From contig NC_057718.1 of the NCBI RefSeq assembly GCF_004010195.1, positions 2,050,122-2,107,496 of the forward strand: a stretch of DNA of 57,375 bases, in the 5' to 3' direction. A program made the translations under genes and the position numbers. Source of the DNA: Chiloscyllium plagiosum (Eukaryota). The notes below the pieces were generated by a model. The model saw only the letters and a list, made by a program, of their open reading frames with translations, ran no database searches and had not been told where the DNA came from. Shown here one piece after another: positions 6,710 to 47,699 of the stretch (position 1 is its first letter; each line of letters begins with the position of its first letter).

Positions 6710-7900
6710 AAACATAGAACATTACAGCGCAGTACAGACCCTTCGGCCCTCGATGTTGCACCGACCTGTGAAATTAATCTGATGCCCATCTAACCTGCAC
6801 TGTTCCATTATTATCCAGATGTTTGTCCAATGCCCATTTAAATGTTGTTAACATCGGTAAGTCTACTACCACTGCAGGTAGGCCATTCCACGCCCCAACA
6901 AGTCTCTGGGTAAAGAAAATACCCCTGATATCTGTCCTAAATCTATCAACCCTCTGTTTAAAGCTATGTCCCCTTGTACTAGCCATCACCATCCGAGGAA
7001 AAAGGCTCTCACTGTCCACCCTATCTAACCCTTTGATTACCTTATACGTCTCAATTAAGTCACCTCTCAACCTTCTTCTCTCCAATGAAAACAGCCTCAG
7101 TTCCCTCAGCTTTTCCACGTAAGACCTTCCCTCCATACCAGGCAACGTCCTAGTAAATCTCCTCTGAACCCTTTCCAAAGCTTCCACACCCTTCCTATAA
7201 TGCGGTGACCAGAACTGTACGCAATACTCCAGGTGGGGCCTTACAGTGCCTTGTACAGCTGAAGCATGACCTCGTGGCTCCGAAACTCAATCCCCCGACC
7301 AATAAACACCAACACTCCATATGCCTTCTTAATAACCCTATCAACCTGGGTGGCAACTTTCAGGGATTTATGAACCTGGGCATTGAGATCTACACTGCCA
7401 AGAATTTTACCATTAGCCAAGTACTCTGCATTCCTGTTATTTCTTCTGAAGTGAACTATCTCACACTTTTCTGCATTAAACTCCATATGCCACTTCTCCG
7501 CCCAGCTCTGCAGCTTATCTACGTCCCTCTGTAACCCACAATATCCTTCAGCACTATCCACAGCTCTGCCTACCTTAGTGTCAACAGCAAATTTACTAAC
7601 CCATCCTTCCGCGTCCATATCCAGATCATTTATAAAAATGACAAACAGCAGTGGCCCCAGAACAAATCCTTGCGGCATACCACTGGTAACTGAGCTCCAG
7701 GATGAACATTTCCCATCAACCACCACCCTCTGTCTTCTTTCAGCTAGCCAACTTCTGATCCACTCCACTAAATCACCCTCAATCCCATGTCTCTGTATTT
7801 TGTGCAATAGCCTACCGTGGGGAACCTTATCAAACACCTTACTGCAATCCATATACACCACCTCCACTGCCTTACCTTCACCCAGCTGTGTTGTCACCTT
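6710..7900 (-). mobile_element. CR1 LINE 3' portion (RT domain plus C-terminus), frameshifted
   Basis: ORF 7241..7897 (VYMDCSKVFDKVPHGRLL, GMPQGFVLGPLLFVIFINDL, KFAVDTK) and ORF 6774..7187 (LFSLERRRLRGDLIETYK). Confidence 0.95.
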
Positions 7901-8214
7901 TCTCTGTTGAAACTACAATGTTGGAGGCTGAAACAAATAAGCAGTTTAAAACAAAAACCCACTTAACCCTTCACTCGGCTCCCCCTCAGCACATTTTACT
8001 TCCTGCCGGTAAACCTTAAAGTATTTCATCCCCACAGTGCAATGAATTCCCACTTTCCACCAAAATCCCAGATGTACCCACTCACTCAGTTGCTGCCTCA
8101 CAAATGAAAGATTTCATTGTAACTTCTTCTGCTCCCAGTAAGGGCAAAACATCTTTGAAAGCTGCTCTGCAAGTCCAGTTTTCACAACCACACTTCTGCT
8201 ATCACCAAAGACGA

Positions 8215-13424: not shown

Positions 13425-14895
13425 AAAGACCCAAGAACATTACAGCACAGGAACAGGCCCTACGGCCCTCCAAGCCTGTGCTGATCCAGATCCTCTATCT
13501 AAACCTGTCACCTATTTTCTAAAGATCTGTGTCTCTCTGCTCCCTGCCTATTCATGTATCTGTCTAGATGCAGCTTAAATGATACTATCGTGCCCACCTC
13601 TACCACCTCCACTGGCAATGCATTCCATGCACCCACCACCCTCTGTGTAAAGAATTTTCCACGTTTATCTCCCTTGAACCCTTCCGCTCTCACTTTGAAC
13701 TTGTGACCCCTAGTAATAGAGTCCCCCACTGTGGGAAAAAGCTTCTTAGTATTCACCCTGTCTCATGATTTTGTAGACATCAATCAGGTTCCCCCCTCAA
13801 CCCTTATCTTTCCAATGAAAATAATCCTAATCTACTCAACCTCTCCTCACAGCTAGCACCCTCCATACCAGGCAACGTCCTGGTGAACCTCCTCTGCACC
13901 CTCTCCAAACCTACCAGAACTGTACGCAGTATTCTAAATGTGGCCGAACCAAACTGTAACATGACCTGTCAACTCTTGTACTCAATGCCCCGTCCATGAA
14001 GGAAAGCATGCTGTATGCCTTCTTGACTACTTTACTGACCTGCGTTGCCACCTTCAGGGAACAATGGACCTGAACACCCAGATCTCTCTGTACATCAATA
14101 TTCCTCAGGGCTTTTCCATTTACTCTTTGCTCTGGAATTGGATCTTCCAAAATGTATCACCTCGCATTTGCCCAGATTTACCTCCATCTGCCACTTCTCT
14201 GCCCAACTCTCCAATCTGTTTATATTCTGCAGTATTCTCTGACAGCCCCCTTCACTATCTCCTACTCCACCAACCTTAGTGTCATCTGCAAACTTGCTAA
14301 TCAGGCAACTGATACCTTCCTCCAGATCATTTATGTATATCACAAACAGTAATGGTCCCAGCACAGATCCCTGTGGAACACCACCGGTCACAGGTCTCCA
14401 TTTTGAGAAACTCCCTTCCACTACCACTCTGTGTCTCCTGTTGCCCAGCCCGTTCTCTATCCACCTAGCGAGAACACCCTGGACTCCATGCGACTTCACT
14501 TTCTCCATCAGCCTACCATGGGGAACCTTATCAAACACCTTACTAAAGTCCATGTATATGCCATCTACAGCCCTTCCCTTGTCAATCAACTTTGTCACCT
14601 CCTCAAAGAATTCTATTAGGTTTGTAAGACATGACCTTCCCTGCACAAGACCATGCTGCCCATTACTGATAATCCCATTTCCTTCCAAATGGGAACAGAT
14701 CCTATCCCTCAGTAACTTTTCCAGCAGCTTTCCTACCACTGATGTCAGGCTCACTGGTCTGTAATTACCTGGATTATCCCAGCTATCCTTCTTAAACAAG
14801 GGGACAATATTAGCAATTTTCCAGTCCTCCAGGACCTCACCTGTGTTCAAGGATGCTGCAGTTATTTCTTCTCCCGCTTCCCTCAGTAACCTGTC
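13425..14895 (-). mobile_element. CR1 LINE ORF2 (reverse transcriptase) 3' portion
   Basis: ORF 14095..15006: DWKIANIVPLFKK, NYRPVSLTSVVGKLLE, GVPQGSVLGPLLFVIYINDL, KFADDTK. Confidence 0.95.
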
Positions 14896-15097
14896 TGAGA
14901 TCTTTATTCTAGGAGAAAATGAGGACTGCAGATGCTGGAGATCAGAGCTGAAAATGTGTTGCTGGAAAAGCGCAGCAGGACATTTCAGGAAAGAAGAAGG
15001 GCTCATGCCCGAAACGTCGATTCTCCTGCTCCTTGGATGCTGCCTGACCTGCTGCGCTTTTCCAGCAACACATTTTCAGCTCTGAGATCTTTATTCT
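14896..15097. mobile_element. Palindromic Penelope-derived short element (family 1) with target-site duplication
   Basis: 'ctgagatctttattct' flanks both ends; internal inverted arms. Confidence 0.8.
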
Positions 15098-16260: not shown

Positions 16261-17216
16261 NNNNNNNNNNNNNNNNNNNNNNNNNNNNNNNNNNNNNNNN
16301 NNNNNNNNNNNNNNNNNNNNNNNNNNNNNNNNNNNNNNNNNNNNNNNNNNNNNNNNNNNNNNNNNNNNNNNNNNNNNNNNNNNNNNNNNNNNNNNNNNNN
16401 NNNNNNNNNNNNNNNNNNNNNNNNNNNNNNNNNNNNNNNNNNNNNNNNNNNNNNNNNNNNNNNNNNNNNNNNNNNNNNNNNNNNNNNNNNNNNNNNNNNN
16501 NNNNNNNNNNNNNNNNNNNNNNNNNNNNNNNNNNNNNNNNNNNNNNNNNNNNNNNNNNNNNNNNNNNNNNNNNNNNNNNNNNNNNNNNNNNNNNNNNNNN
16601 NNNNNNNNNNNNNNNNNNNNNNNNNNNNNNNNNNNNNNNNNNNNNNNNNNNNNNNNNNNNNNNNNNNNNNNNNNNNNNNNNNNNNNNNNNNNNNNNNNNN
16701 NNNNNNNNNNNNNNNNNNNNNNNNNNNNNNNNNNNNNNNNNNNNNNNNNNNNNNNNNNNNNNNNNNNNNNNNNNNNNNNNNNNNNNNNNNNNNNNNNNNN
16801 NNNNNNNNNNNNNNNNNNNNNNNNNNNNNNNNNNNNNNNNNNNNNNNNNNNNNNNNNNNNNNNNNNNNNNNNNNNNNNNNNNNNNNNNNNNNNNNNNNNN
16901 NNNNNNNNNNNNNNNNNNNNNNNNNNNNNNNNNNNNNNNNNNNNNNNNNNNNNNNNNNNNNNNNNNNNNNNNNNNNNNNNNNNNNNNNNNNNNNNNNNNN
17001 NNNNNNNNNNNNNNNNNNNNNNNNNNNNNNNNNNNNNNNNNNNNNNNNNNNNNNNNNNNNNNNNNNNNNNNNNNNNNNNNNNNNNNNNNNNNNNNNNNNN
17101 NNNNNNNNNNNNNNNNNNNNNNNNNNNNNNNNNNNNNNNNNNNNNNNNNNNNNNNNNNNNNNNNNNNNNNNNNNNNNNNNNNNNNNNNNNNNNNNNNNNN
17201 NNNNNNNNNNNNNNNN
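16261..17216. other. Assembly gap (N run) flanked by G-rich low-complexity sequence
   Basis: N characters. Confidence 1.
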
Positions 17217-18455: not shown

Positions 18456-18803
18456 AATTTAAGACAATTCCACTCCTCCTTCAGCATCCAGAAGTGATGC
18501 AGGTCAAAGAGGGAATGACAGCACAGATGCAGTGCACCATGGACGGCCACAGTGTGGGTGACACTACTGTATACTGGGAACGGCAGATACGGGGAAACCA
18601 GAGGCGCTGGCTGCTGACTCACTCCGTCTATAACTACATCACCAGGTCTCACCGAGTGGCTGACCATATCCAACCATCCAGAGACCTCACCAGTAACAGC
18701 TTCGTCCTGACCATCAGCACTGTGCAGCCCAGTGACACTGGCACATACATCTGCAGTGTGTGGGGATCGGTATATGGAACAGGAACTCAACTAAATGTGA
18801 CCA
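18456..18803 (+). CDS. Exon: germline-joined VJ-type Ig V domain 1 of an IgSF membrane protein
   Basis: Acceptor ttttcctattggcag| and donor ACCA|gtaag, both phase 1. Translation has V-set hallmarks: QxP..V.EG.TAQMQC, VYWERQ, FVLTISTVQPSDTGTYIC, and the J motif YGTGTQLNVT. Confidence 0.93.
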
Positions 18804-21281: not shown

Positions 21282-22264
21282 NNNNNNNNNNNNNNNNNNN
21301 NNNNNNNNNNNNNNNNNNNNNNNNNNNNNNNNNNNNNNNNNNNNNNNNNNNNNNNNNNNNNNNNNNNNNNNNNNNNNNNNNNNNNNNNNNNNNNNNNNNN
21401 NNNNNNNNNNNNNNNNNNNNNNNNNNNNNNNNNNNNNNNNNNNNNNNNNNNNNNNNNNNNNNNNNNNNNNNNNNNNNNNNNNNNNNNNNNNNNNNNNNNN
21501 NNNNNNNNNNNNNNNNNNNNNNNNNNNNNNNNNNNNNNNNNNNNNNNNNNNNNNNNNNNNNNNNNNNNNNNNNNNNNNNNNNNNNNNNNNNNNNNNNNNN
21601 NNNNNNNNNNNNNNNNNNNNNNNNNNNNNNNNNNNNNNNNNNNNNNNNNNNNNNNNNNNNNNNNNNNNNNNNNNNNNNNNNNNNNNNNNNNNNNNNNNNN
21701 NNNNNNNNNNNNNNNNNNNNNNNNNNNNNNNNNNNNNNNNNNNNNNNNNNNNNNNNNNNNNNNNNNNNNNNNNNNNNNNNNNNNNNNNNNNNNNNNNNNN
21801 NNNNNNNNNNNNNNNNNNNNNNNNNNNNNNNNNNNNNNNNNNNNNNNNNNNNNNNNNNNNNNNNNNNNNNNNNNNNNNNNNNNNNNNNNNNNNNNNNNNN
21901 NNNNNNNNNNNNNNNNNNNNNNNNNNNNNNNNNNNNNNNNNNNNNNNNNNNNNNNNNNNNNNNNNNNNNNNNNNNNNNNNNNNNNNNNNNNNNNNNNNNN
22001 NNNNNNNNNNNNNNNNNNNNNNNNNNNNNNNNNNNNNNNNNNNNNNNNNNNNNNNNNNNNNNNNNNNNNNNNNNNNNNNNNNNNNNNNNNNNNNNNNNNN
22101 NNNNNNNNNNNNNNNNNNNNNNNNNNNNNNNNNNNNNNNNNNNNNNNNNNNNNNNNNNNNNNNNNNNNNNNNNNNNNNNNNNNNNNNNNNNNNNNNNNNN
22201 NNNNNNNNNNNNNNNNNNNNNNNNNNNNNNNNNNNNNNNNNNNNNNNNNNNNNNNNNNNNNNNN
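21282..22264. other. Assembly gap between the V1 and V2 exons
   Basis: N characters. Confidence 1.
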
Positions 22265-24245: not shown

Positions 24246-24735
24246 CTCAGAATAAGGGTCACCCATTTAAGACAGAGATGAGGAGGAAATTCTTCTCTCA
24301 GACAGTTGGTGTATCTGTGGAATCCTTCACAAAGAAGGCTGTCAAGGCTGGGTAATAAGATCTATACAAGGCTGAGAGAGACAGAGCTTTAAAGGAAGGG
24401 AATTGAGAGTTATAGGGAAAAGGCAGACAAGTGGAGTTGAGGATCAGCCACAATCTGACTGATTGGCAGAGTAGATTGAATGGGCTGAGTGGCCTTGTTC
24501 AGCTCCTATCTTTTATAGACTTATGATTTGAAAGAATGCTGGATAGGCATGAGGGCCGTCAACTTTCAGGACTACATGAACAGACAGGAGGAATGGAACT
24601 GATGCAGAGGTTGCAGAGACTTGATGGACTTCACTTTAATAAATCTATGTGTAAAACATTGTCAGATTTAGTTTGACAGAAAACAGTGAAGACACTAGAC
24701 CTGGTTTTAATTTGTTCACATGTTTTCTCTTAAAG

Positions 24736-27700
24736 GTGCAAACGCCCCAGTCATTTACCAGTCTCCGATCCTGGAACGTGTCACTGAGGGTCACACTGCC
24801 CGGTTACAGTGCACCGTGATGAACGCCGCAGTGACACACACTGATGTTCACTGGTACCGGGAACAACAAGAGAACAGCACGGAGTGGGTTTTAACAGATG
24901 ATGTGAGGAACATCACACAATGGAGCCCAGGATTCACTGAGCGGTTCCAGTCTTCCAGAGAGCCCTCCAATAACAGCTTCATTCTGACCATCACAAACGT
25001 GCAGCCTAATGACACTGGGGTCTATTTCTGTAAAGTGTGGGGAGACATCAGTGGGAATGGAACCCAGTTGATTGTAACCAATGAAGGTGTCTCCAGAATT
25101 AGAACTGGAATGAATGGAACCGGTGAAGAAAAATTGAGGAATGGGAATGAGCTGGATGCAGGCAGAGGTGAACTGTCCACCACCGTGTCGAACTGCAATG
25201 GAACTAGACAACAAGCCGGGAATGTGTACAACTGGAATGTAGCTACTGGAGAGAAATCCGGGATTGGGAATGAATCAGAGATCTCTGGTCATGTGTCCAG
25301 ACAGAATAAAACCATTGGAGAGAAAACCAGGACTGAGAATGAGCTGCAAGCTGTTACTGGACAGTTTTCCTGGAATGTGTCTGAACAAAATAGAATCAAC
25401 ATGGATGATCCCAGGAATGGGAGTGACCTGATATTAAGCAATGAACAAGTACTTGGAAATGAGCTGAAACAAAATGAAACCATTAATAAGATTATTAGAA
25501 ATGAGAATGAATTAAATGCAAATGGAGGTGGCCAGTTCAAAACTAGGAATGAGCTAATTGCAGTCAGTAGAGAGTTATCCGGTATTGTGTCTATCAGGAA
25601 TGGAGCCAATGGAGAAATATCTGGGAATTTTACCAACTGGAATAGAACGAGTGGAGACATATTGAGCAATGCATCTATTGGGAATGGAACCAGTGAAGTG
25701 ATATTCAGGAATGTGTCTATTGGGAATGGAACCGGTGAAGTGATATTCAGGAATGTGTCTATTAGGAATGGAACCGGTGAAGATATATCCAAGAATGTGT
25801 CTATTGGGAATGGAACCAGTGAAGTGATATTGAGGAATGTGTCTATTGGAAATGGAACCGGTGAAGATATATCCAAGAATGTGTCTATTGGAAATGGAAC
25901 CGGTGAAGTGATATTCAGGAATGTGTCTATTGGGAATGGAACCAGTGAGGTGATATTCAGGAATGTGTCTATTGGGAATGGAACTGATGAAGATATATCC
26001 AAGAATGTGTCTATCAGGAACGGAACCAGTGAGGTGATATCGAGGAATGTGTCCGACGGGAATGGGACCTGTAGAGAGATATCTGGGATTGTGTCAAACA
26101 GGAATGGAACCAATGAAGGGAAATCTGGGATTGTATCCATTGGGAATGCAACAAGTGGAGAGATATCTGAGATTATTTCAAATGGGAATGGGACCAGTGG
26201 AGAGATATCCAGGATTTTGTCTATTGGGAATGGGACCAGCGGAGAGATATCTGGGATTTTGTCTATTGGGAATGGGACCAGCGGAGAGATATCCGGGATT
26301 GTGTCTATTAGGAATGGGACCAGTGGAGAGATATCCATGATTATGTCTATTGGGAATGAAACCATTGGATTAATATCCGGGATTGTGTCCAACTGGAATG
26401 GAACTGGTGGAGATATATCTGGGGTTGTGTCTATTGGGAAAGGAACCATTAGAGAGTTATCTGGGATGGTTCCTATCGGGAAAGGAACTACTGGAGAGAT
26501 ATCCGGGATTGTCTCTATCGGGAATGGAACCAGTGGAGAGGTATCCGCAATTGTGTCTATTGGGAATATACCCATTGGAGTAATATCTGGCAATGTGTCC
26601 AACTGGAATGGAACCAGACGAGAAATTTCCAGGATCATGAATGAATCAAATGCAGTCACTGCAAACAATTCAAGCAATGGGAATGAACTGAAAATAGCCA
26701 ACAGAACAGCATCAATCCCTGGATCCAAATGGATAGAAACCAGTCGGGCAATAAATGTGACAAGGAATATGCTGAACACAAGCAGTGGAGAAATATCACG
26801 GAATGTTCCAAATATATCCAGCGGAGAAGTCACCAGGAATGTGTCACAATGGAATAACAGCAGAGGACAGATATCCAAGACTGAGAATGAACTGAATTTC
26901 ACAAGTGGAGAGGTGAACAGGATTGTGTCCAACTGTAGTGTAACGAGTGCAGCAATTCCCAGGATTCGGAATGAATCAGATGCAGTAATCAGAGTGACTT
27001 CATACGTTGGGAACAATCTGAGTGCAGCCAGTGGAGTGATCTCCAAAACTGGGAATGAGCTGAATACATCCAATCTAAGGGCATCCAGCATTGGAATCAG
27101 GCCAAAAGCAATCAATGTAGAGATCTCCAAGACTAGAAGTGACACAAATGCAGGAAATAGAAAGCTTTCTTGGAAAATGTCCAAACGATATAGACATCGT
27201 GGACAACCCTCCAAGCCTGGGAATCAATTGAATTTTGCAAGTGGAGCATTACCCAGCATTGTTTCCAAATGGAATGGAACTATTGGGGAGATTTTCAGGA
27301 TTGGAAGTGAATTGAAATCAGCCAGCAGAGAGATCTCCGGGACTGGGAATGAGACAAATATTGCCAGTGCAGAGATCTCCAGGATTGGGAATGAGACAAA
27401 TCTTGCTAGTAAAGAAATCTCCAGGATTGGGAATGAGACGAATGTTGCCAGTGCGGAGATCTCCGGGATTGGGAATGAGACTAATGTTGCCAGTAGAGAA
27501 ATCTCTGGGACTGGGAATGAGACAAATATTGCCAGAGCGGAGATCTCCGGGATTGGGAATGAGACTAATGTTGCCAGTGCGGAGATCTCCGGGATTGGGA
27601 ATGAGACTAATGTTGCCAGTAGAGAAATCTCCAGGATTGGGGATGAGACTAATGTTGCCAGTGCGGAGATCTCCAGGATTGGGAATGAGACAAATCTTGC

Positions 27701-29238
27701 TAGTAAAGAAATCTCCAGGATTGGGAATGAAACGAATGTTGTCAGTGCGGAGATCTCCGGGATTGGGAATGAGACTAATGTTGCCAGTGCGGAGATCTCC
27801 AGGATTGGGAATGAGACAAATCTTGCTAGTAAAGAAATCTCCAGGATTGGGAATGAAACGAATGTTGCCAGTGCGGAGATCTCCGGGATTGGGAATGAGA
27901 CTAATGTTGCCAGTAGAGAAATCTCTGGGACTGGGAATGAGACAAATGTTGTCAGTGCGGAGATCTCCGGGATTGGGAATGAGATGAATATTGCCAGTGC
28001 AGAGATCTCCAGGATTGGGAATGAGACAAATATTGCCAGTGCGGAGATCTCCAGGATTGGGAATGAGACTAATGTTGCCAGTGCGGAGATCTCCGGGATT
28101 GGGAATGAGACTAATGTTGCCAGTAGAGAAATCTCCTGGATTGGGAATGAGATTAATGATGCCAGTGCGGAGATCTCTGGGATTGGGAATGAGACTAATG
28201 TTGCCAGTGGAGGAATCTCCGGGACTGGGAATGAGACTAATGTTGCCAGTGCGGAGATCTCCAGGATTGGGAATGAGACTAATGTTGCCAGTGGAGGAAT
28301 CTCCGGGACTGGGAATGAGATTAATGTTGCCAGTGCGGAGATCTCCGGGATTGGGAATGAGACTAATGTTGCCAGTGAAGGAATCTCCGGGACTGGGAAT
28401 GAGACTAATGTTGCCAGTCCGGAGATCTCCAGGATTGGGAATGAGACAAATATTGCCAGTGCGGAGATCTCCGGGACTGGGAATGAGACTAATGTTGCCA
28501 GTGGAGAAATCTCCGGGACTAGGAATGAGACTAATGTTGCCAGTGCGGAGATCTCCGGGATTGGGAATGAGACAAATGTTGCCAGTAGAGAAACCTCTGG
28601 GACTGTGTCTAAAGAGACTAGAATCATTGGTGAAATAAGTATGAATGATAATGTGCTGAATGTATCCAATGATAAAATATCTGGAAATGAACGAAATGCA
28701 GCTCATGGAGCAATTACAAAAAATGGGAATGAAGTGACAGCAACCAGTGGGAAGAAATCTAGCAATGTGTCTAAAGTTAATGTAATTCATGGAAATACCT
28801 CCAGGTCTGGGAATGAACTCAGTGCAGCCAGAGGAGAGCTGGCCAAAACTGACCTGGAAGAAATCAGTGAAACATTTACAAGGAATGAGTTGAATACAAT
28901 CAATGGAGAAGTTTCCAGGAACATGTCTAAATGGAATGGCACCAGTATAGAGAGCTTCAGAAATTGGAATGTACTGAATGGATCCATTGGTGACATTTCA
29001 AGGGCTGCGAAGAAACTGGAGACAGTGAATGAGGAGATGGAGGGCAGAGCAGTTCAATGGAATAGAACCAGTGAAGACAGATCCAGGATTGAGAAGGATC
29101 TGAATGTAACAAGCGGTAATTCAGCAAAGAATCAGTCTGAAGAAAAAGGAACCATTTTGGAGCGTTCCAGGAACAGGACAGAAATGAGTGTAACGATTGC
29201 AGAGATCTCCCGGAATATCACTCAGCTGAGCACAATCA
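24736..29238 (+). CDS. Giant exon (4,503 bp): VJ-type Ig V domain 2 (to about 25080) plus an about 1,390-aa repetitive N-glycosylated stalk
   Basis: Acceptor tgttttctcttaaag| in phase 1 joins V1 as ...NVTS-ANAPVIYQSP. V-set motifs LQC, VHWYRE, FILTITNVQPNDTGVYFC and SGNGTQLIVT are present. The frame is uninterrupted for 1,500 codons. Donor ATCA|gtaagt is phase 1. Confidence 0.92.
25670..26620 (+). repeat. Coding 42-bp tandem array A (SIGNGTSEVIFRNV / SIGNGTSGEISGIV), about 22 units
   Basis: Visible in both DNA and translation. Confidence 0.9.
27330..28605 (+). repeat. Coding 42-bp tandem array B (GNETNVASAEISGI), about 30 units
   Basis: Visible in both DNA and translation. Confidence 0.95.
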
Positions 29239-30363
29239 GTAAGTAAACTTCAGCATTGTTTAGTGTGACTTTAAGAAAGGCAGGATTATATTTACACAAC
29301 ACTTGGTCATATTTCCCAGAAACATGACATTGAACTGCATGCCAGTGTTGAATCTTGGCCATAACCTCTTGCAAGTTGGGGAGTGTGACACCTTTCTACC
29401 AACTATGTCATAGATGTATTGCCATTTTTGCTCCCAAGCTCAGTTTGTCAGGCCAAAGCAATCTTCTAAGTGGGTGCATTGAGTAAACTGCATCAACAGC
29501 CAGCATGCATTGAAATACGGGAGAGGAAATTTCAATTGAGACATACAAGAAGGCATTAGATGATTATTTAGATAGAAATTATGTACAAGCATACAGGCAA
29601 AAAAACGGGAGATCGGCACAATGTCAGGATTCATATTGGCAGAGACAGTGGAGTCACATTGGGCTGAATGGCCTATTTCTGTGTCATAATAATTCCCAGG
29701 TTCTGTGAAACTATGTTAACATGAAACCTTCACAGAGCTACAAAAACAAATGAAATGCAGAGTAATAATTTACACAATAACCTAATACACATACTGAGTA
29801 ATGTACATCATCATCTAAGCCAGCTACAGCATAATAACATACATTATACCTACAGAGTAATGCGTAAATACTAACTGCACAACTACAGAGTAATAGTGTA
29901 AATAATCATTTAACATTGCTACAGAGTAATAATGCATAAAATAACCAAAGATCGCTCCAGAGTAAAAATATACATAATAACCTACAGGGTAATAATTTAC
30001 ATCAAAAACCAAATTCACCTACAGAGTAATAATGTACACATTAAACTACCACACCTACAAAGTAATAATCTACATATTAATCTACCATACCTGCAGAGTA
30101 ATAATGTACATATTAATCTATTGCACCTACAGAGGAACAACATACATATTAACCTACTACTCCTATGGAGGAATAATGCTCAGAATATCCCAACATAGCC
30201 ACTGAATAATAATGTATGCAATAACTAAAAGAGCTACTAAGAAATAATGTATATAATAACCTAAAGCTACTACAGCATAGTAATGTATAAGATAACCTAA
30301 AGCGTCTGCAGTGTAATAACATACATATTAAACTACTGCATATACAGAGAAATAACGCACGTA

Positions 30364-30577
30364 CAGTCATTTCTTTGATAGTGTGATAGTCGTGTTCCTG
30401 TGTGAGCACATGCTTTACAAGAATTCCACGGTACAAATAACAAAGTGTTGGTGATGCAATCACACTATAGCCAACACCGGTTTAAAAAGTTCACCCTTTA
30501 GATACAGCATCCCCTTTCGTCAATTGTGTTACAGTGAATTTGTGTTGACAAAATGTACGTTATAGCAGAATGACCTG
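30364..30577. mobile_element. Small TA-flanked MITE-like element
   Basis: TA|CAGTCATTTCT...AGCAGAATGACCTG|TA with imperfect terminal inverted repeats, interrupting the satellite. Confidence 0.55.
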
Positions 30578-30775
30578 TATTAACCCACTGCTTCTACAGA
30601 GGAATAATGTTCAGAATATCCCAACATAGCCACTGAATAATAAGGTATAAAATAACTAATACAGTTACTGACAAATAATGTATGGAATAACCCAAAGCTT
30701 CTAAAACATTAGAATACACATATTAACCTGCTGCACCTACAGAGTAATAATGTATGTAGTACCCCAACATAGCTA

Positions 30776-31097
30776 CAGGTAGACGATCCTTCATCTGAAC
30801 ATGCAAAAACCGAAAAGCTCTGAAGTCTGAAGGTTTTTTTGTGAAGTTTTTAACTCATTAACAAGGCTGTTTGGCGAGCAAACAGTTAACCCCAGGTTGA
30901 CACCCACTCCATGTGTGTCATTCAGATACGACGTGGGGGGACGTAGCCAAGCACGTTCTTAGTTAGAAGTCTGCTTCTCTGGTAAGATTTTTTAAAAAAT
31001 TTCACCATTAAACTGTCACATTCTGAAAACTGAAAAATTCCGAATTCCGAAAAAAACAGCTGGTCCCGAGCTTTTCAGATAAAGGATCTTCTAGTTG
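30776..31097. mobile_element. Tc1/mariner-pogo-type MITE
   Basis: TA|CAGGTAGACGATCCTTCATCTGAA ... TTCAGATAAAGGATCTTCTAGTTG|TA terminal inverted repeats with TA duplication. Confidence 0.7.
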
Positions 31098-31765
31098 TAT
31101 GGAGTAGTAATGGATACAATAACTAACAAGTGACAGAGGAATAATGTATATAAGATACAACCTTGCAGAATAATAATGTACACACACCTTCAAATAATGT
31201 TGATAATAACAGAACACACCTAGAGATTCATAATCAACTTAATAACCCGAGATACCCACACAGTAATCATGTATATAGTAACAGAGTACATCTACAGAAG
31301 AAAAAGATTTATAACATATTAAAAGAATAACAATGTCCATAAGGAGCAAGCACTGCTACAGACTAATAGTGTACATAATAACCACAGTAAAAATGTTAAT
31401 TACAACCTAAAACAGCTACAGCTTAATAATGTATATAATAACCTCATACAAGTGCAGAGTAATCCGTTACATAGTAATTCAACATACCCACATAGACATA
31501 ACGATAACCGAACAGAACTACAGAATAGTAATGTGGATATTAACATAACACATCTTAATCATAATAACACATATAATGTTCAAACACAGCTACAGAGAAA
31601 TAACGGATATAGTACCTCAACCCAGCTACACAGTAATAATGATAATGGTACCCTAACACAGCAACAGAGTAATAATGGAAATGATACCCTAACCTAGATA
31701 CACAGTAATATTGGGCATGGTACCCGAACCCAGCTACAGATTAAAACTGGATATGATACCCTATT

Positions 31766-32070
31766 AAGGACAAAAGGGTAACTAGGGAGAGAATAGGCCC
31801 CTTAAAGATCAGCAAGGTGGCCTTTGTGTGGAGCCACAAAAAATGGGAGAGATACTAAATGAATATTTTGCATCAGTATTTACTGTGGACAAGGATATGG
31901 AAGATATAGACTGTAGGGAAATAGATGGTGACATGTTGCAAAATGTCCAGATTACAGAGGAGGAAGTGCTGGATGTTTTGAAACGGATAAAAGTGGATAA
32001 ATCTCCAGGACCAGGTGTACCCGAGAACTCTGTGGGAAGCTAGAGAAGTGATTGCTGGGCCTCTTGCTGA
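31766..32070 (+). mobile_element. CR1 ORF2 internal fragment
   Basis: MGEILNEYFASVFT...ITEEEVLDVLKRIKVDKSPGP. Confidence 0.9.
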
Positions 32071-32145: not shown

Positions 32146-35100
32146 CAGCTACACAGTAGTAATGGATATGACACCCTAACCCAGCTACACAGTAGTAATG
32201 GATATGACACCCTAACCCAGCTACACAGTAGTAATGGATATGACACCCTAACCCAGCTACACAGTAGTAATGGATATGACACCCTAACCCAGCTACACAG
32301 TAGTAATGGATATGACACCCTAACCCAGCTACACAGTAGTAATGGATATGACACCCTAACCCAGCTACACAGTAGTAATGGATATGACACCCTAACCCAG
32401 CTACACAGTAGTAATGGATATGACACCCTAACCCAGCTACACAGTAGTAATGGATATGACACCCTAACCCAGCTACACAGTAGTAATGGATATGACACCC
32501 TAACCCAGCTACACAGTAGTAATGGATATGACACCCTAACCCAGCTACACAGTAGTAATGGATATGACACCCTAACCCAGCTACACAGTAGTAATGGATA
32601 TGACACCCTAACCCAGCTACACAGTAGTAATGGATATGACACCCTAACCCAGCTACACAGTAGTAATGGATATGACACCCTAACCCAGCTACACAGTAGT
32701 AATGGATATGACACCCTAACCCAGCTACACAGTAGTAATGGATATGACACCCTAACCCAGCTACACAGTAGTAATGGATATGACACCCTAACCCAGCTAC
32801 ACAGTAGTAATGGATATGACACCCTAACCCAGCTACACAGTAGTAATGGATATGACACCCTAACCCAGCTACACAGTAGTAATGGATATGACACCCTAAC
32901 CCAGCTACACAGTAGTAATGGATATGACACCCTAACCCAGCTACACAGTAGTAATGGATATGACACCCTAACCCAGCTACACAGTAGTAATGGATATGAC
33001 ACCCTAACCCAGCTACACAGTAGTAATGGATATGACACCCTAACCCAGCTACACAGTAGTAATGGATATGACACCCTAACCCAGCTACACAGTAGTAATG
33101 GATATGACACCCTAACCCAGCTACACAGTAGTAATGGATATGACACCCTAACCCAGCTACACAGTAGTAATGGATATGACACCCTAACCCAGCTACACAG
33201 TAGTAATGGATATGACACCCTAACCCAGCTACACAGTAGTAATGGATATGACACCCTAACCCAGCTACACAGTAGTAATGGATATGACACCCTAACCCAG
33301 CTACACAGTAGTAATGGATATGACACCCTAACCCAGCTACACAGTAGTAATGGATATGACACCCTAACCCAGCTACACAGTAGTAATGGATATGACACCC
33401 TAACCCAGCTACACAGTAGTAATGGATATGACACCCTAACCCAGCTACACAGTAGTAATGGATATGACACCCTAACCCAGCTACACAGTAGTAATGGATA
33501 TGACACCCTAACCCAGCTACACAGTAGTAATGGATATGACACCCTAACCCAGCTACACAGTAGTAATGGATATGACACCCTAACCCAGCTACACAGTAGT
33601 AATGGATATGACACCCTAACCCAGCTACACAGTAGTAATGGATATGACACCCTAACCCAGCTACACAGTAGTAATGGATATGACACCCTAACCCAGCTAC
33701 ACAGTAGTAATGGATATGACACCCTAACCCAGCTACACAGTAGTAATGGATATGACACCCTAACCCAGCTACACAGTAGTAATGGATATGACACCCTAAC
33801 CCAGCTACACAGTAGTAATGGATATGACACCCTAACCCAGCTACACAGTAGTAATGGATATGACACCCTAACCCAGCTACACAGTAGTAATGGATATGAC
33901 ACCCTAACCCAGCTACACAGTAGTAATGGATATGACACCCTAACCCAGCTACACAGTAGTAATGGATATGACACCCTAACCCAGCTACACAGTAGTAATG
34001 GATATGACACCCTAACCCAGCTACACAGTAGTAATGGATATGACACCCTAACCCAGCTACACAGTAGTAATGGATATGACACCCTAACCCAGCTACACAG
34101 TAGTAATGGATATGACACCCTAACCCAGCTACACAGTAGTAATGGATATGACACCCTAACCCAGCTACACAGTAGTAATGGATATGACACCCTAACCCAG
34201 CTACACAGTAGTAATGGATATGACACCCTAACCCAGCTACACAGTAGTAATGGATATGACACCCTAACCCAGCTACACAGTAGTAATGGATATGACACCC
34301 TAACCCAGCTACACAGTAGTAATGGATATGACACCCTAACCCAGCTACACAGTAGTAATGGATATGACACCCTAACCCAGCTACACAGTAGTAATGGATA
34401 TGACACCCTAACCCAGCTACACAGTAGTAATGGATATGACACCCTAACCCAGCTACACAGTAGTAATGGATATGACACCCTAACCCAGCTACACAGTAGT
34501 AATGGATATGACACCCTAACCCAGCTACACAGTAGTAATGGATATGACACCCTAACCCAGCTACACAGTAGTAATGGATATGACACCCTAACCCAGCTAC
34601 ACAGTAGTAATGGATATGACACCCTAACCCAGCTACACAGTAGTAATGGATATGACACCCTAACCCAGCTACACAGTAGTAATGGATATGACACCCTAAC
34701 CCAGCTACACAGTAGTAATGGATATGACACCCTAACCCAGCTACACAGTAGTAATGGATATGACACCCTAACCCAGCTACACAGTAGTAATGGATATGAC
34801 ACCCTAACCCAGCTACACAGTAGTAATGGATATGACACCCTAACCCAGCTACACAGTAGTAATGGATATGACACCCTAACCCAGCTACACAGTAGTAATG
34901 GATATGACACCCTAACCCAGCTACACAGTAGTAATGGATATGACACCCTAACCCAGCTACACAGTAGTAATGGATATGACACCCTAACCCAGCTACACAG
35001 TAGTAATGGATATGACACCCTAACCCAGCTACACAGTAGTAATGGATATGACACCCTAACCCAGCTACACAGTAGTAATGGATATGACACCCTAACCCAG

Positions 35101-38100
35101 CTACACAGTAGTAATGGATATGACACCCTAACCCAGCTACACAGTAGTAATGGATATGACACCCTAACCCAGCTACACAGTAGTAATGGATATGACACCC
35201 TAACCCAGCTACACAGTAGTAATGGATATGACACCCTAACCCAGCTACACAGTAGTAATGGATATGACACCCTAACCCAGCTACACAGTAGTAATGGATA
35301 TGACACCCTAACCCAGCTACACAGTAGTAATGGATATGACACCCTAACCCAGCTACACAGTAGTAATGGATATGACACCCTAACCCAGCTACACAGTAGT
35401 AATGGATATGACACCCTAACCCAGCTACACAGTAGTAATGGATATGACACCCTAACCCAGCTACACAGTAGTAATGGATATGACACCCTAACCCAGCTAC
35501 ACAGTAGTAATGGATATGACACCCTAACCCAGCTACACAGTAGTAATGGATATGACACCCTAACCCAGCTACACAGTAGTAATGGATATGACACCCTAAC
35601 CCAGCTACACAGTAGTAATGGATATGACACCCTAACCCAGCTACACAGTAGTAATGGATATGACACCCTAACCCAGCTACACAGTAGTAATGGATATGAC
35701 ACCCTAACCCAGCTACACAGTAGTAATGGATATGACACCCTAACCCAGCTACACAGTAGTAATGGATATGACACCCTAACCCAGCTACACAGTAGTAATG
35801 GATATGACACCCTAACCCAGCTACACAGTAGTAATGGATATGACACCCTAACCCAGCTACACAGTAGTAATGGATATGACACCCTAACCCAGCTACACAG
35901 TAGTAATGGATATGACACCCTAACCCAGCTACACAGTAGTAATGGATATGACACCCTAACCCAGCTACACAGTAGTAATGGATATGACACCCTAACCCAG
36001 CTACACAGTAGTAATGGATATGACACCCTAACCCAGCTACACAGTAGTAATGGATATGACACCCTAACCCAGCTACACAGTAGTAATGGATATGACACCC
36101 TAACCCAGCTACACAGTAGTAATGGATATGACACCCTAACCCAGCTACACAGTAGTAATGGATATGACACCCTAACCCAGCTACACAGTAGTAATGGATA
36201 TGACACCCTAACCCAGCTACACAGTAGTAATGGATATGACACCCTAACCCAGCTACACAGTAGTAATGGATATGACACCCTAACCCAGCTACACAGTAGT
36301 AATGGATATGACACCCTAACCCAGCTACACAGTAGTAATGGATATGACACCCTAACCCAGCTACACAGTAGTAATGGATATGACACCCTAACCCAGCTAC
36401 ACAGTAGTAATGGATATGACACCCTAACCCAGCTACACAGTAGTAATGGATATGACACCCTAACCCAGCTACACAGTAGTAATGGATATGACACCCTAAC
36501 CCAGCTACACAGTAGTAATGGATATGACACCCTAACCCAGCTACACAGTAGTAATGGATATGACACCCTAACCCAGCTACACAGTAGTAATGGATATGAC
36601 ACCCTAACCCAGCTACACAGTAGTAATGGATATGACACCCTAACCCAGCTACACAGTAGTAATGGATATGACACCCTAACCCAGCTACACAGTAGTAATG
36701 GATATGACACCCTAACCCAGCTACACAGTAGTAATGGATATGACACCCTAACCCAGCTACACAGTAGTAATGGATATGACACCCTAACCCAGCTACACAG
36801 TAGTAATGGATATGACACCCTAACCCAGCTACACAGTAGTAATGGATATGACACCCTAACCCAGCTACACAGTAGTAATGGATATGACACCCTAACCCAG
36901 CTACACAGTAGTAATGGATATGACACCCTAACCCAGCTACACAGTAGTAATGGATATGACACCCTAACCCAGCTACACAGTAGTAATGGATATGACACCC
37001 TAACCCAGCTACACAGTAGTAATGGATATGACACCCTAACCCAGCTACACAGTAGTAATGGATATGACACCCTAACCCAGCTACACAGTAGTAATGGATA
37101 TGACACCCTAACCCAGCTACACAGTAGTAATGGATATGACACCCTAACCCAGCTACACAGTAGTAATGGATATGACACCCTAACCCAGCTACACAGTAGT
37201 AATGGATATGACACCCTAACCCAGCTACACAGTAGTAATGGATATGACACCCTAACCCAGCTACACAGTAGTAATGGATATGACACCCTAACCCAGCTAC
37301 ACAGTAGTAATGGATATGACACCCTAACCCAGCTACACAGTAGTAATGGATATGACACCCTAACCCAGCTACACAGTAGTAATGGATATGACACCCTAAC
37401 CCAGCTACACAGTAGTAATGGATATGACACCCTAACCCAGCTACACAGTAGTAATGGATATGACACCCTAACCCAGCTACACAGTAGTAATGGATATGAC
37501 ACCCTAACCCAGCTACACAGTAGTAATGGATATGACACCCTAACCCAGCTACACAGTAGTAATGGATATGACACCCTAACCCAGCTACACAGTAGTAATG
37601 GATATGACACCCTAACCCAGCTACACAGTAGTAATGGATATGACACCCTAACCCAGCTACACAGTAGTAATGGATATGACACCCTAACCCAGCTACACAG
37701 TAGTAATGGATATGACACCCTAACCCAGCTACACAGTAGTAATGGATATGACACCCTAACCCAGCTACACAGTAGTAATGGATATGACACCCTAACCCAG
37801 CTACACAGTAGTAATGGATATGACACCCTAACCCAGCTACACAGTAGTAATGGATATGACACCCTAACCCAGCTACACAGTAGTAATGGATATGACACCC
37901 TAACCCAGCTACACAGTAGTAATGGATATGACACCCTAACCCAGCTACACAGTAGTAATGGATATGACACCCTAACCCAGCTACACAGTAGTAATGGATA
38001 TGACACCCTAACCCAGCTACACAGTAGTAATGGATATGACACCCTAACCCAGCTACACAGTAGTAATGGATATGACACCCTAACCCAGCTACACAGTAGT

Positions 38101-39416
38101 AATGGATATGACACCCTAACCCAGCTACACAGTAGTAATGGATATGACACCCTAACCCAGCTACACAGTAGTAATGGATATGACACCCTAACCCAGCTAC
38201 ACAGTAGTAATGGATATGACACCCTAACCCAGCTACACAGTAGTAATGGATATGACACCCTAACCCAGCTACACAGTAGTAATGGATATGACACCCTAAC
38301 CCAGCTACACAGTAGTAATGGATATGACACCCTAACCCAGCTACACAGTAGTAATGGATATGACACCCTAACCCAGCTACACAGTAGTAATGGATATGAC
38401 ACCCTAACCCAGCTACACAGTAGTAATGGATATGACACCCTAACCCAGCTACACAGTAGTAATGGATATGACACCCTAACCCAGCTACACAGTAGTAATG
38501 GATATGACACCCTAACCCAGCTACACAGTAGTAATGGATATGACACCCTAACCCAGCTACACAGTAGTAATGGATATGACACCCTAACCCAGCTACACAG
38601 TAGTAATGGATATGACACCCTAACCCAGCTACACAGTAGTAATGGATATGACACCCTAACCCAGCTACACAGTAGTAATGGATATGACACCCTAACCCAG
38701 CTACACAGTAGTAATGGATATGACACCCTAACCCAGCTACACAGTAGTAATGGATATGACACCCTAACCCAGCTACACAGTAGTAATGGATATGACACCC
38801 TAACCCAGCTACACAGTAGTAATGGATATGACACCCTAACCCAGCTACACAGTAGTAATGGATATGACACCCTAACCCAGCTACACAGTAGTAATGGATA
38901 TGACACCCTAACCCAGCTACACAGTAGTAATGGATATGACACCCTAACCCAGCTACACAGTAGTAATGGATATGACACCCTAACCCAGCTACACAGTAGT
39001 AATGGATATGACACCCTAACCCAGCTACACAGTAGTAATGGATATGACACCCTAACCCAGCTACACAGTAGTAATGGATATGACACCCTAACCCAGCTAC
39101 ACAGTAGTAATGGATATGACACCCTAACCCAGCTACACAGTAGTAATGGATATGACACCCTAACCCAGCTACACAGTAGTAATGGATATGACACCCTAAC
39201 CCAGCTACACAGTAGTAATGGATATGACACCCTAACCCAGCTACACAGTAGTAATGGATATGACACCCTAACCCAGCTACACAGTAGTAATGGATATGAC
39301 ACCCTAACCCAGCTACACAGTAGTAATGGATATGACACCCTAACCCAGCTACACAGTAGTAATGGATATGACACCCTAACCCAGCTACACAGTAGTAATG
39401 GATATGATACCCTAAC
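32146..39416. repeat. Perfect 36-bp tandem satellite CAGCTACACAGTAGTAATGGATATGACACCCTAACC, about 202 copies
   Basis: Printed lines repeat with an exact 180-bp (5-unit) period; no variant seen until the last unit. Confidence 0.98.
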
Positions 39417-44180: not shown

Positions 44181-45655
44181 ACCCTGCTCTGGGGTATTTA
44201 CAGGGGATTACCCTGCTCTGGGGTATTTACAGGGGATTACCCTGCTCTGGGGTATTTACAGGATTTACCCTGCTCTGGGGTATTTACAGGGGATTACCCT
44301 GCTCTGGGCTATTTACAGGGGTTTACCCTGCCCTTGGGTATTTACAGGGGATTACCCTGCTCTGGGGTATTTACAGGGGATTACCCTGCTCTGGGGTATT
44401 TACAGGATTTACCCTGCTCTGGGGATTTTACAGTGGTTTACCCTGCTCTGGGGTATTTACAGGGGATTACCCTGCTCTGGGGTATTTACAGGGGATTACC
44501 CTCTTCTGTGGTATTCACAGGTTTACCCTGCTCGGGGTATTTACAGGGGATTACCCTGCTCTGGGGTATTTACAGGGGATTACCCTGCTCTGGGGTATTT
44601 ACAGGATTTACCCTGCTCTGGGGATTTTACAGTGGTTTACCCTGCTCTGTGGATTTTACAGTGGTTTACCCTGCTCTGGGGTATTTACAGGGGATTACCC
44701 TCTTCTGTGGTATTCACAGGTTTACCCTGCTCTGGAGTATTTACAGAGCATTACCTTGCTCTGGGATATATACAGAGTTTACCCTGCTCTGGGGTATTTA
44801 CAGGGGATTACCCTGCTCTGGGGTATTTACAGTGGTTTACCCTGCTCTGGGGTATTTACAGGGTTTACCCTGCCCTGGGGTATTTATAGGCGATTACCCT
44901 GCTCTGGGGTATTTACAGGGATTACCCTGCTCTGGGGTATTTACAGGGGATTACCCTGCCCTGGGGTATTTACAGGGATTACCCTGCTCTGGGGTATTTA
45001 CAGGGGATTACCCTCTTCTGTGGTATTCACAGGTTTACCCTGCTCTGGGGTATTTACATGGGATTACCCTGCCCTGGGGTATTTACAGGGATTACCCTGC
45101 TCTGGGGTATTTACAGGGGATTACCCTGCTCAGGTGTATTTACTGGGTTTACCCTGCTCTGGGGTATTTACAGGGGATTACCCTCTTCTGTGGTATTCAC
45201 AGGTTTACCCTGCTCTGGGGTATTTACTGGGTTTACCCTGCTCTGGGGTATTTACTGGGTTTACCCTGCTCTGGAGTATTTACAGGGGATTACCCTGCCC
45301 TGGGGTATTTACAGGGATTACCCTGCTCTGGGGTATTTACAGGGGTTTACCCTGCTCAGGTGTATTTACTGGGGATTACCGTGCCCTGGGGTATTTACAG
45401 GGGTTTACCCTGCTCTGGGGTATTTACAGGGGATTACCCTGCTCTGGGTTATTTACAGGGGATTACCCTGCCCTGGGCTATTTACAGGGATTACCCTGCT
45501 CAGGTGTATTTACTGGGGATTACCCTGCTCTGGGCTATTTACAGGGATTACCCTGCTCAGGTGTATTTACTGGGGATTACCCTGCTCTGGGGTATTTACA
45601 GGGGTTTACCCTGCTCTGGGGTATTTACAGGGGTTAATCCAGTTCTCTGGGGTAT
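44181..45655. repeat. 28-29-bp minisatellite CCCTGCTCTGGGGTATTTACAGGGGATTA, about 50 copies with variants
   Basis: Directly visible; it explains ORFs 44168..45637 and 44334..45680. Confidence 0.97.
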
Positions 45656-46664
45656 TCATAGACAACACAGAATAGTATAACACAGGAACAGGCCCTTCGG
45701 CCCACCATTTTTATGCTGATCATGGTGCCATTCTGAACTGCCTGCACATGGTCCATATATCCCTCTGTTCTCTACCTGTTCGTGTGTCAGTCGAACTGCC
45801 TCTTAAACATTGCTTCTCCCACCTCTCCCAGAGGCACGTTCCCAGCACCTACCACCCTCTGTGTAAAATAACATTCCCCCCCGACATCCCTCTCACAATC
45901 AGCTCCATAGCTGGATCCTGTATAATACTGAGTTCCCACAAATGTCAACAGCATCCCCTTTCTCTTGGGACCTGTGCCACCTTCAGTAATTCATCTGCAG
46001 AAAGACCCAGTTCCCGTCTGTGAGGGGGATTTAGCAGCTTACAATCCACCAGAGTGTGAATGCTAGCTAGTGCTGACCCATTCACCTGTGTCACCCCCTG
46101 GGACACTGGGAAGCAGAGACCATCACTTCCTCATTCACCACATCAGTTTCAGAATACCCTTGACTGAATGGAACGCTGAAGCATTGCCTGGTTAGGATGG
46201 GGTACAGTCATCAGGCACTGCCTTGAGATGGTCACTCAGCCGATTGGTCACTTTCACCAGGTGAAAGTGAGGTCTGCAGATGCTGGAGGTCAGATGCTGG
46301 GCATAAGCCCTTGATTCCTGAAGAAGGGCTTATGCCCGAAATGTCGATTCTCCTGCTCCTTGGATGCTGCCTGACCTGCTGCGCTTTTCCAGCAACACAT
46401 TTTCAGCCCCACTTTCACCAGGTTCCAGGCTAAAGCGGAATGTGTGATGAAGATGTGGCCCTTGTTACTGGGGGGGACAGTGTGTGTATGGTGAGAGCTG
46501 TATACCTGCCCCTGACTACTAGGAGCTAACAACTTGTTCCACATTGACGTGATTTCAAGCAAGAGCCTTGTGTCCAGCTGTGGGTGGGTTATTGCTCACT
46601 GCAGCAGGAGGTCTATGTGCTGAGTGTGTTGTGTGTGTTATGAAAGCAACACACAAATGAAGTT

Positions 46665-46884
46665 GCATCAAGACACTGTTCAAAAGGGCCACAACACACT
46701 GCAGTACACCAGAACTGCAAAAAGAGGAAGAGGAACACCTATACAAGGTATTCGCCAAAAACGGATATCCTCGCAATTTCATCAACAGATGCCTAAGGGA
46801 AAGACAACAGAACGAGGACATGCCGCAACCCAAAGGACTAGCCACACTACCATACATCAAGAACATCTCTGAACTGACAGCCAG
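46665..46884 (+). mobile_element. Penelope-like element RT C-terminal fragment
   Basis: Hand translation TLFKRATTHCSTPELQKEEEEHLYKVFAKNGYPRNFINRCL...ATLPYIKNISELTA; the NGYP and LPY motifs are typical of PLEs. Confidence 0.85.
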
Positions 46885-46995
46885 NNNNNNNNNNNNNNNN
46901 NNNNNNNNNNNNNNNNNNNNNNNNNNNNNNNNNNNNNNNNNNNNNNNNNNNNNNNNNNNNNNNNNNNNNNNNNNNNNNNNNNNNNNNNNNNNNNN
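46885..46995. other. Assembly gap
   Basis: N characters. Confidence 1.
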
Positions 46996-47557
46996 CTCTT
47001 TGTTCAGCAACACTCCCTAGGACCTTACCATTAAGTGTATAAGTCCTGCTAAGATTTGCTTTCCCAAAATGCAGCACCTCGCATTTATCTGAATTAAACT
47101 CCATCTGCCACTTCTTAGCCCATTGGCCCATCTGGTCCAGATCCCATTGTAATCTGAGGTGACCCTCTTTGCTGTCCACTACACCTCCAATTTTGGTGTC
47201 ATCTGCAAACTTACTAACTGTACCTCTTATGCTCGCATCCAAATCATTTATGTAAATGACAAAACGTAGAGGACCCAGCACCGACCCTTGTGGCACAGGC
47301 CTCCAGTCTGAAAACCAACCCTCCACAACCACCCTCTGTCTTCTATCTTTGAGCCAGTTCTGTATCCAAATGGCGAGTTCTCCCTGTATTCCATGAGATC
47401 TAACCTTGCTAATCAGTCTCCCATGGGGAACCTTGTGGAACGCCTTACTGAAGTCCATACAGATCACATCTACTGATCTACTGTCATCAATCTTCTTTGT
47501 TACATCTTCAAAAAACTCAATCAAGTTTGTGAGACATGATTTCCCATGCACAAAGTC
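46996..47557 (-). mobile_element. CR1 RT fragment
   Basis: SCLTNLIEFFEDVT, MDFSKAF, PQGSVLGP, KFADDTK. Confidence 0.95.
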
Positions 47558-47699
47558 ATTCAAATGAAGAGTAATTATATACACAATAATCTCACACAGC
47601 TACACGGTGCAATAATTTACATGTTACCCTGATTTGTATTCAGAATAATAATGTCTGTAAAACCCTCATACAAACATCATAACAAGCTTACATACAAAG

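Follow-up and report, generated by a model that had tools for sequence, protein, structure and literature searches.

A sequon-rich repeat stalk in a predicted VJ-type receptor of the shark Chiloscyllium plagiosum, likely derived from the end of its own V exon

The window analysed here, the whole 57,375-nucleotide stretch of Chiloscyllium plagiosum DNA at positions 2,050,122 to 2,107,496 of NC_057718.1, carries on its forward strand a gene predicted to encode a type I membrane receptor, in which a single exon holds both a VJ-type immunoglobulin (Ig) variable (V) domain and a long repeat stalk. This exon of 4,503 nt lies within an open reading frame listed at 24711–29246 (+; 1,511 aa from stop to stop). 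Its 5' part, at 24736–25079 (+), encodes the second V domain (V2; Pfam V-set, E 2.1e-18), and Pfam detects Ig similarity at residues 13–116 of the frame only. The remainder, from 25080 to 29238, encodes 1,388 aa without any stop codon. Upstream, an exon at 18456–18803 (+), running from phase 1 to phase 1 between AG and GTAAGA boundaries, encodes a first VJ-type V-set domain (V1; Pfam E 1.6e-16) and joins V2 in frame. Downstream, a transmembrane (TM) exon at 49492–49630 (+), in frame with the stalk exon, was detected by tblastn with the tails of the skate protein P0005 (Leucoraja; E 6e-5) and of the paralog P0012 (E 6e-8). When joined by predicted splicing, the V1, V2-stalk and TM exons give 1,662 aa with no internal stop. 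The modelled plan is V1-V2-stalk-TM-short tail; one large exon contains all the repeats, and the TM exon downstream of it is phase-compatible.

The V-set residues C24, W38, D91, Y95 and C97 are invariant in 8/8 aligned domains, as are G105, G107 and T108 of the J-like G strand, which is genomically contiguous with V in one exon. A search for recombination signals, limited to an exact 12-spacer consensus, gave 0 matches with 0 expected. The frame of the TM exon ends at a stop 16 residues past the TM segment, provided that no splicing occurs at the GT at 49628. A further exon may follow this GT; tblastn found no tail exon in the remaining 7.7 kb of the window or in the 30 kb beyond. No tyrosine motif occurs in the modelled shark tail, in P0005 or in a second skate protein, P0004 (Rhinoraja).

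The stalk is rich in Ser (13.8%), Asn (13.3%), Gly (12.5%), Ile (11.8%) and Glu (9.9%), Pro (0.8%) and Cys (0.2%) being rare. It carries 92 N-glycosylation sequons (N-x-S/T; 61 NxT and 31 NxS), i.e. about one per 15 residues, versus 39.2±5.2 (maximum 56) in 2,000 composition shuffles of the stalk. The excess is found in all sub-regions: 8 sequons versus 4.3 expected in the flank that precedes the first of two young arrays, A and B (p 0.044), 32 versus 8.7 in array A, 15 versus 6.7 in the middle region, 26 versus 13.1 in array B and 11 versus 6.0 in the flank that follows it (p 0.014). The 14-aa period also extends into the flanks, with a lag-14 identity of 0.13–0.20 and mostly 0.04–0.10 at adjacent lags. 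The initial annotation had described proline-poor 14-aa repeats bearing sequons and had called for a comparison with composition-matched expectation; the description holds throughout the region, which is best read as a stalk poor in Pro and rich in N-glycans, the occupancy of the sites being a prediction. The 7+7 sub-period that it had also read into the units is absent: lag-7 identity is 0.05 in array A and 0.14 in array B, versus 0.66 and 0.79 at lag 14, and the similarity of half-units is that expected by chance (p 0.28–0.59). As Ser and Thr together reach 21.5%, some O-glycosylation may be added to the predicted N-glycans.

Unconstrained segmentation of the DNA places 96 of 96 units in the coding frame, and the units shift register four times, by 24, 36, 36 and 30 nt, all multiples of 3. 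Tandem Repeats Finder delimits two 42-bp arrays, array A at 25639–26617 (23.3 copies, 78% matches) and array B at 27330–28586 (29.9 copies, 85% matches), which are young and embedded in older units of equal period. From 5' to 3', all on the + strand, segmentation and sequon counts identify degenerate 14-aa units of two subtypes, X and Y, at 25080–25638, with a possible cryptic donor after 25086, then array A (about 23 units), degenerate middle units at 26618–27329, array B (about 30 units) and degenerate terminal units at 28587–29238, the last of which (29196–29237) is followed by one base and a phase-1 GTAAGT donor. The two subtypes of old units, in the middle region notably, tend to alternate (27 of 39 neighbours versus 19.5 expected, p 0.0055). 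Array A has grown from subtype Y and array B from subtype X.

The same organization is found in skates, all between-species comparisons being made at the protein level. P0004 (1,999 aa) shows the V1-V2-stalk-TM plan with no C domain, and its V1 is 59% identical to that of the shark gene. Its 1,662-aa stalk contains 75 sequons (38±5 expected) and 2.3% Pro and shows a lag-14 peak; P0005, in which the stalk and TM are present, has 60 sequons versus 29±5. A 14-position profile built from the skate stalk alone scores 910 bits on the shark stalk, versus 16±11 in 20 shuffles, and the final 44 residues of the shark stalk are 43% identical to the end of that of P0004. Between the two skates, 35 of 37 sequons are kept. 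The protein P0007 of Chiloscyllium punctatum shows 91% identity across V2 and the first 255 stalk residues, and the first 256 stalk columns, 25 of which differ, share all the sequons of the window (18/18). The skates carry a young array of their own (residues ~530–780 of the P0004 stalk, residues 1–220 of P0005), with mixed 13/14-residue units, a 27-residue period and more Trp and Pro.

Other candidate relatives of the stalk were rejected. Five matches beyond P0007 in a search of 1.84 billion sequences were examined (P0045, P0053, P0056, P0102 and P0145) and are unrelated low-complexity repeats, and a Pfam WEMBL match on array B (E 1.9e-10) reflects likeness of composition to a plant coiled-coil family. 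A sequence search of the PDB returned antibodies only in the best 60 of 9,907 matches.

Tandem arrays that are open by chance exist in this genome: three frames of the 36-bp array at 32146–39416 are open, and on contig C101085 of the genome assembly (G000) a V exon runs into a 1,466-aa satellite frame, several frames being open. The stalk region could, in the same way, be a non-coding intronic minisatellite whose frame happens to be open. However, only one of its six frames is open, with 0 stops versus 7–142 in the five others (six-frame count), and no stop occurs even in degenerate units that are 64–68% identical to the consensus. Furthermore, the skate homologues retain frame, unit and sequons, and a canonical donor in the correct phase closes the exon. 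A non-coding minisatellite is thus largely refuted, and we regard it as barely credible.

Neutral simulations under three ancestor models, with independent sites and a star history, give 17.8–32.1 stops and 7.7–12.9 sequons for 42 degenerate units, versus 0 and 34 observed, and none of the 1,000–2,000 runs reached the observed stop or sequon values. Cys is also depleted in these units (2 versus 6.6–11.1, p 0.001–0.039) and Pro mildly so (7 versus 12.6–15.0, p 0.016–0.067). Since stops are absent, sequons are retained and the skate homologues have the same unit, the stalk appears to be coding and under selection. The view of the initial annotation that a frame open through the diverged parts implies selection is therefore upheld by the 0 stops versus 18–32, the 34 sequons versus 8–13 and the skate homologues. 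Overall amino-acid constraint is nevertheless weak and most positions drift: the ratio of nonsynonymous to synonymous substitution rates (dN/dS) relative to the consensus is 0.81 in the flanks, 0.74 in array A and 0.43 in array B. Selection would have kept the frame, about one sequon per 14–15 residues and the near-absence of Cys, the other positions being largely free to drift. The DNA runs X1–X3 cover introns and exons alike, the exon being covered in pieces. They list six differences in the stalk exon, five missense and one silent; X4 lists no indel.

A coding stalk could also be an alternatively used extension. Here, the main transcript would splice after 25086 to the TM exon, giving a V-V-TM receptor, and the long form would be minor or tissue-restricted. 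The AAG/GTGTCT site at 25086 is in phase 1 and therefore compatible with the TM exon, and the single-cell runs X5 and X6 yielded 0 raw reads on the exon, with 2–6% of each run read, too little to serve as a test. However, this site is a weak donor, that at the end of the stalk being the GTAAGT of the family, and the skate gene models include the stalk. In addition, 18–32 expected stops have been purged, which argues that the stalk is translated often enough to be exposed to selection. A receptor that is mainly produced in the short form is therefore improbable.

Within the gene itself, the repeat unit matches the J-like G strand, which is encoded by the final 42 nt of the V exon. The last 14 codons of V2, at 25038–25079 (+), read WGDISGNGTQLIVT, and SGEISRNGNELNAT is the translated consensus of the old units. 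At 11 of 11 loci (L002–L012), the paralog V exons have WGDISGNGTQL[N/T]VT at their end, and a single base separates it from GTAAG. A DNA profile made from 36 internal degenerate units was run in its 42 rotations on both strands of each 3.3-kb paralog locus. Its best site is the V-exon end in 10 of the 11 loci (L008 was missed), which does not amount to ten independent tests because these loci are mutually related paralogs; the scores on V-exon ends are 18.8–24.0 bits, those of the next best sites 11.3–18.1. With the protein profile of the skate stalk, the same J-like 14-mer came top in 7 of the 9 family proteins, and both profiles designate the last 14 codons of V2 as the putative seed of the repeat. 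V2 of the stalk gene lacks a donor after its G strand, and a GTAAGT donor in phase 1 is found after the last repeat instead.

The stalk was likely born by tandem amplification of the final 42 bases of the V exon. Before the split of sharks and skates, the 3' 42 nt of V2 would have been duplicated in frame, the original donor being pushed 4.16 kb downstream. Unequal crossing-over would then have grown the array to about 100 units, and later lineage-specific expansions would have produced arrays A and B in the shark and a different array in skates. One exon would thus hold the seed, the displaced donor and about 100 descendants of differing ages, which makes the origin of a mucin-like domain traceable.

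The seed, in which up to two sequons occur (unit positions 1 and 6), would have equipped every unit with an N-glycan site from the start. The density of sequons is therefore largely inherited, then retained, rather than built from nothing. Indeed, in-unit sequons lie mostly at these positions in the skates (32 at position 6 and 11 at position 1, of 52), in the shark flanks (12 and 5, of 21) and in array A (18 and 10, in 18 scored units), where 3, 9 and 11 of 23 units carry 0, 1 and 2 sequons, respectively. In array B, the sequon at position 6 is lost (0/30 units) and one at position 3 is gained (26/30), so that 4, 26 and 0 of 30 units carry 0, 1 and 2 sequons. Array B has swapped an ancestral sequon for a new one, possibly by chance in a single founder unit, and this swap is a naturally occurring test of whether selection bears on the density of glycans and not on sequence. 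The motif I-G-N-x-T occurs in both arrays (A, 25668–26600; B, 27342–28600), in registers three residues apart relative to a shared EIS anchor; A and B may have converged on one glycosylated I-G-N-x-T turn.

The stalk, which is acidic, includes net-basic patches that are poorer in sequons, at ~27000–27300 in the shark and at residues ~350–490, 1120–1190 and 1400–1540 of the P0004 stalk. They could be sites of shedding or of polyanion binding; no furin-type R-x-K/R-R site is present in the basic patches of the shark or of both skates.

With respect to its conformation, the initial annotation had proposed either an N-glycan bottle-brush or a regular beta-solenoid and had suggested AlphaFold models of the repeats. 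As monomers, near-perfect repeats and degenerate ones gave opposite answers. For ten units of array B, three of five AlphaFold2 models are confident beta-structures, with pLDDT scores (the predicted value of the local distance difference test) of 79.5, 77.6 and 76.0, and consist of 12-residue strands with a Gly-Asn break every 14 residues. Twelve degenerate units (26820–27323), modelled with the skate sequences in the alignment, reach a pLDDT of 28.8, i.e. no confident fold. For the solenoid part of the proposal, array B gives confident models and the diverged units none.

A parallel beta-solenoid rod would have one 14-residue coil per unit, with Ile and Val inside and N-glycans on the Gly-Asn turns. 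Each beta-coil contributes 0.48 nm, so that about 100 coils would make a rod near 50 nm long. Several features besides the array-B models fit this structure: the seed is already a beta-strand of the Ig fold and Pro is rare, Ile occupies unit position 12 in 29/30 units of B and 16/18 of A, the two arrays carry I-G-N-x-T independently in differing registers, and just four register shifts occur across about 100 units. The array-B model also matches the adhesins antigen 43 (Z 14.0, root-mean-square deviation (rmsd) 2.6) and TibA (Z 13.0, rmsd 3.0), with 140 residues aligned. However, the likeness to these beta-helical adhesins is one of solenoids in general, at 8–10% identity and for a model from a method biased to this fold, and a Foldseek search of the array-B model against the PDB gave no match at E<=0.001. 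The alignment supplied for array B consists of 20 overlapping pieces of the same stalk, and the two other models failed (pLDDT 36.4 and 28.2). According to the available part of PMC11795689, AlphaFold2 folds random perfect repeats into confident beta-solenoids, and the solenoid model of MUC22 is doubted there because of this bias. Furthermore, the degenerate units find no confident fold, position 12 is Thr in 17/81 and position 13 Pro in 16/81 skate units, the dN/dS of the flanks is 0.81 and no 7+7 period is seen. The rod is therefore unlikely, without being negligible. The broader scenario, in which the J-like G strand was amplified about 100-fold into an N-glycan-studded solenoid of a vertebrate immune-type receptor, maintained ever since sharks and skates separated, with a convergence of A and B on the I-G-N-x-T turn, is equally doubtful. 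If true, the end of an antigen-receptor-type domain would have given rise to a repeat fold that is new. Array B provides, in any case, a clean natural case for judging AlphaFold2 solenoid models of mucin-like repeats.

On balance, we consider it probable that the region is the repeat stalk of a type I receptor, likely born from the V-exon end and likely forming an N-glycan-coated, mostly unfolded spacer. Besides the failure of the degenerate units to fold in AlphaFold2, the skate stalks plot as disordered relative to the charge-hydropathy boundary (0.385–0.393 versus 0.425–0.43). A leader-bearing transcript would yield a type I glycoprotein. In the endoplasmic reticulum, most sequons would receive N-glycans, whose bulk would stretch the chain out as a bottle-brush; a largely unfolded stalk could be coated with as many as about 90 N-glycans and some O-glycans, and would lift V1-V2 tens to a few hundred nm from the membrane. 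As the modelled tail has no tyrosine motif, the receptor may serve in adhesion or tethering, or as a decoy or steric barrier, beside signalling paralogs.

Several observations weigh against this spacer. In the charge-hydropathy comparison, the shark stalk falls, if slightly, with folded chains (0.447 versus 0.422; array A, 0.498), its 24% of large hydrophobic residues is high for a bottle-brush, and the confident array-B models are beta-structures. No leader exon was detected by tblastn or by a scan for hydrophobic ATG-donor segments. P0004 and P0005 are gene-model predictions. Between them, the Asn of sequons is kept in 37/37 cases versus 56/62 (p 0.08) and their Ser/Thr in 35/37 versus 124/146 (p 0.17), differences that alone are not significant. 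In run X7, which we guess to be RNA, stalk contigs at 27133–27397 and 27543–27654 have a depth of ~2, too thin to count; paralog V sequence reaches a depth of ~260 in the same run. No splice joint was listed at 25086, where coverage that could reveal one is nil. The neutral simulations assume independent sites and a star history, assumptions violated because repeats convert each other, and the relatedness of the paralog loci, mentioned above, reduces the weight of the seed match.

Mucin-type stalks are carried by receptors such as TIM, CD8 and CD300-like proteins, and the repeats of MUC21 and MUC22 are themselves Pro-poor. Like those of MUC21 and MUC22, the product of the shark gene is predicted to be a type I membrane protein, and a single large exon encodes its long stalk of tandem repeats. 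The two best language-model look-alikes of P0005 are MUC22 (0.83) and MUC21 (0.81), both under the 0.9 mark and leads only. Unlike mucins, the shark unit matches an Ig G strand, and the stalk lacks the Pro/Thr/Ser-rich (PTS) composition, having 0.8% Pro, 21.5% Ser+Thr and 13.3% Asn. It would therefore resemble a mucin stalk in its way of working, but is not itself one.

PMC9417175 describes how mucins arise in mammals when exonic repeats are gained and vary in copy number, from secreted proline-rich precursors and with O-glycosylation. The shark gene would likewise have acquired a glycan-dense stalk through exonic repeats, but its precursor is the end of an Ig V domain bearing N-sequons, it encodes a membrane receptor and the stalk is common to the shark and two skates. 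It would thus extend the exonic-repeat model of mucin birth to an N-glycan route starting from an Ig domain. A precedent for N-glycan repeat proteins is hyosophorin of fish eggs, which in the passages available consists of tandem peptide repeats with bulky multiantennary N-glycans and is 80–90% carbohydrate (PMC3528131, PMC9630641, PMC12753239). Hyosophorin is a cortical-alveolus polyprotein cut at fertilisation, with identical repeats, and these passages mention neither an Ig domain nor an anchor, whereas the shark gene has Ig domains, a TM exon and diverged repeats. The resemblance concerns the way of working; homology is not suspected.

The V exons themselves also have known counterparts, namely UrIg, UrIg2, NITR, MDIR and NKp30. 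The shark gene shares with these a single-exon V with a germline-joined J-like end and no evident rearrangement; its family also forms a multigene cluster whose paralogs have tyrosine-motif tails, as in such receptor families. UrIg and UrIg2 are non-rearranging VJ-type antigen-receptor-like genes of elasmobranchs (PMC12227049, in part), and MDIR is described in PMC3031540 (in part). UrIg2 has C domains and Ig-like dimers according to the available part of PMC12227049, whereas the shark gene combines a pair of V domains with a repeat stalk and lacks a C domain; 'mucin' and 'stalk' are absent from the main text of that paper. A term search of PMC7677710 for the V-exon family gave 0 hits. We found no account of the gene, the cluster or a J-strand-derived stalk in the literature, within which subscription journals were poorly covered and supplementary tables may name the cluster. 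What is new here is the derivation of a repeat unit from the J-like end of a V exon; N-glycan repeats, exonic-repeat mucins and non-rearranging VJ genes were already known.

Within a cluster of >100 V exons, no member other than this gene was seen to bear a stalk. Indeed, a V2 query gave 151 matches in genome G000, mostly at 2.0–4.3 Mb of C9 and many with stops, and among them a long open frame follows V in the stalk exon and in one satellite case only. The latter, the V exon of contig C101085 with its 1,466-aa frame, was rejected as a second stalk gene: past the V exon come a satellite, of which several frames are open, and then a C domain. A query with the degenerate stalk returned four matches in G000, all four being the stalk exon itself, which is thus single copy. 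Proteins of the paralogs have a V(n)-TM plan and tails that bear tyrosine motifs, and the public names of cluster members are generic. Such a cluster of VJ-type V exons is relevant to the origin of antigen receptors and of paired innate receptors.

On C9, the VJ-type V exons lie on both strands, and smaller groups occur on C39, C25 and C8. A separate upstream paralog (L017:3855–7400, C9 ~2.020–2.023 Mb) comprises two V exons, a TM exon of its own and a tail exon that contains tyrosine. On C101085 (L013:4971–9368 and L014), a germline-joined light-chain-like VJ exon and a C domain are separated by satellite.

Elsewhere in the window, assembly gaps at 16261–17216, 21282–22264 and 46885–46995 could hide a small exon. 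The 36-bp array at 32146–39416, open in three frames as mentioned above, is located in the stalk-to-TM intron and comprises 202 copies at 99% identity; it may be an assembly artefact because its copies are so uniform, and degenerate copies flank it at ~29700–31800 and 40400. Fragments at 6774–7912, 14095–15075, 46847–47599, 48840–49412 and 51051–51683 resemble, by eye, reverse transcriptases of long interspersed nuclear elements (LINE) and an integrase of a long terminal repeat (LTR) element. Finally, a 29-bp array of 52 copies lies at 44181–45656.

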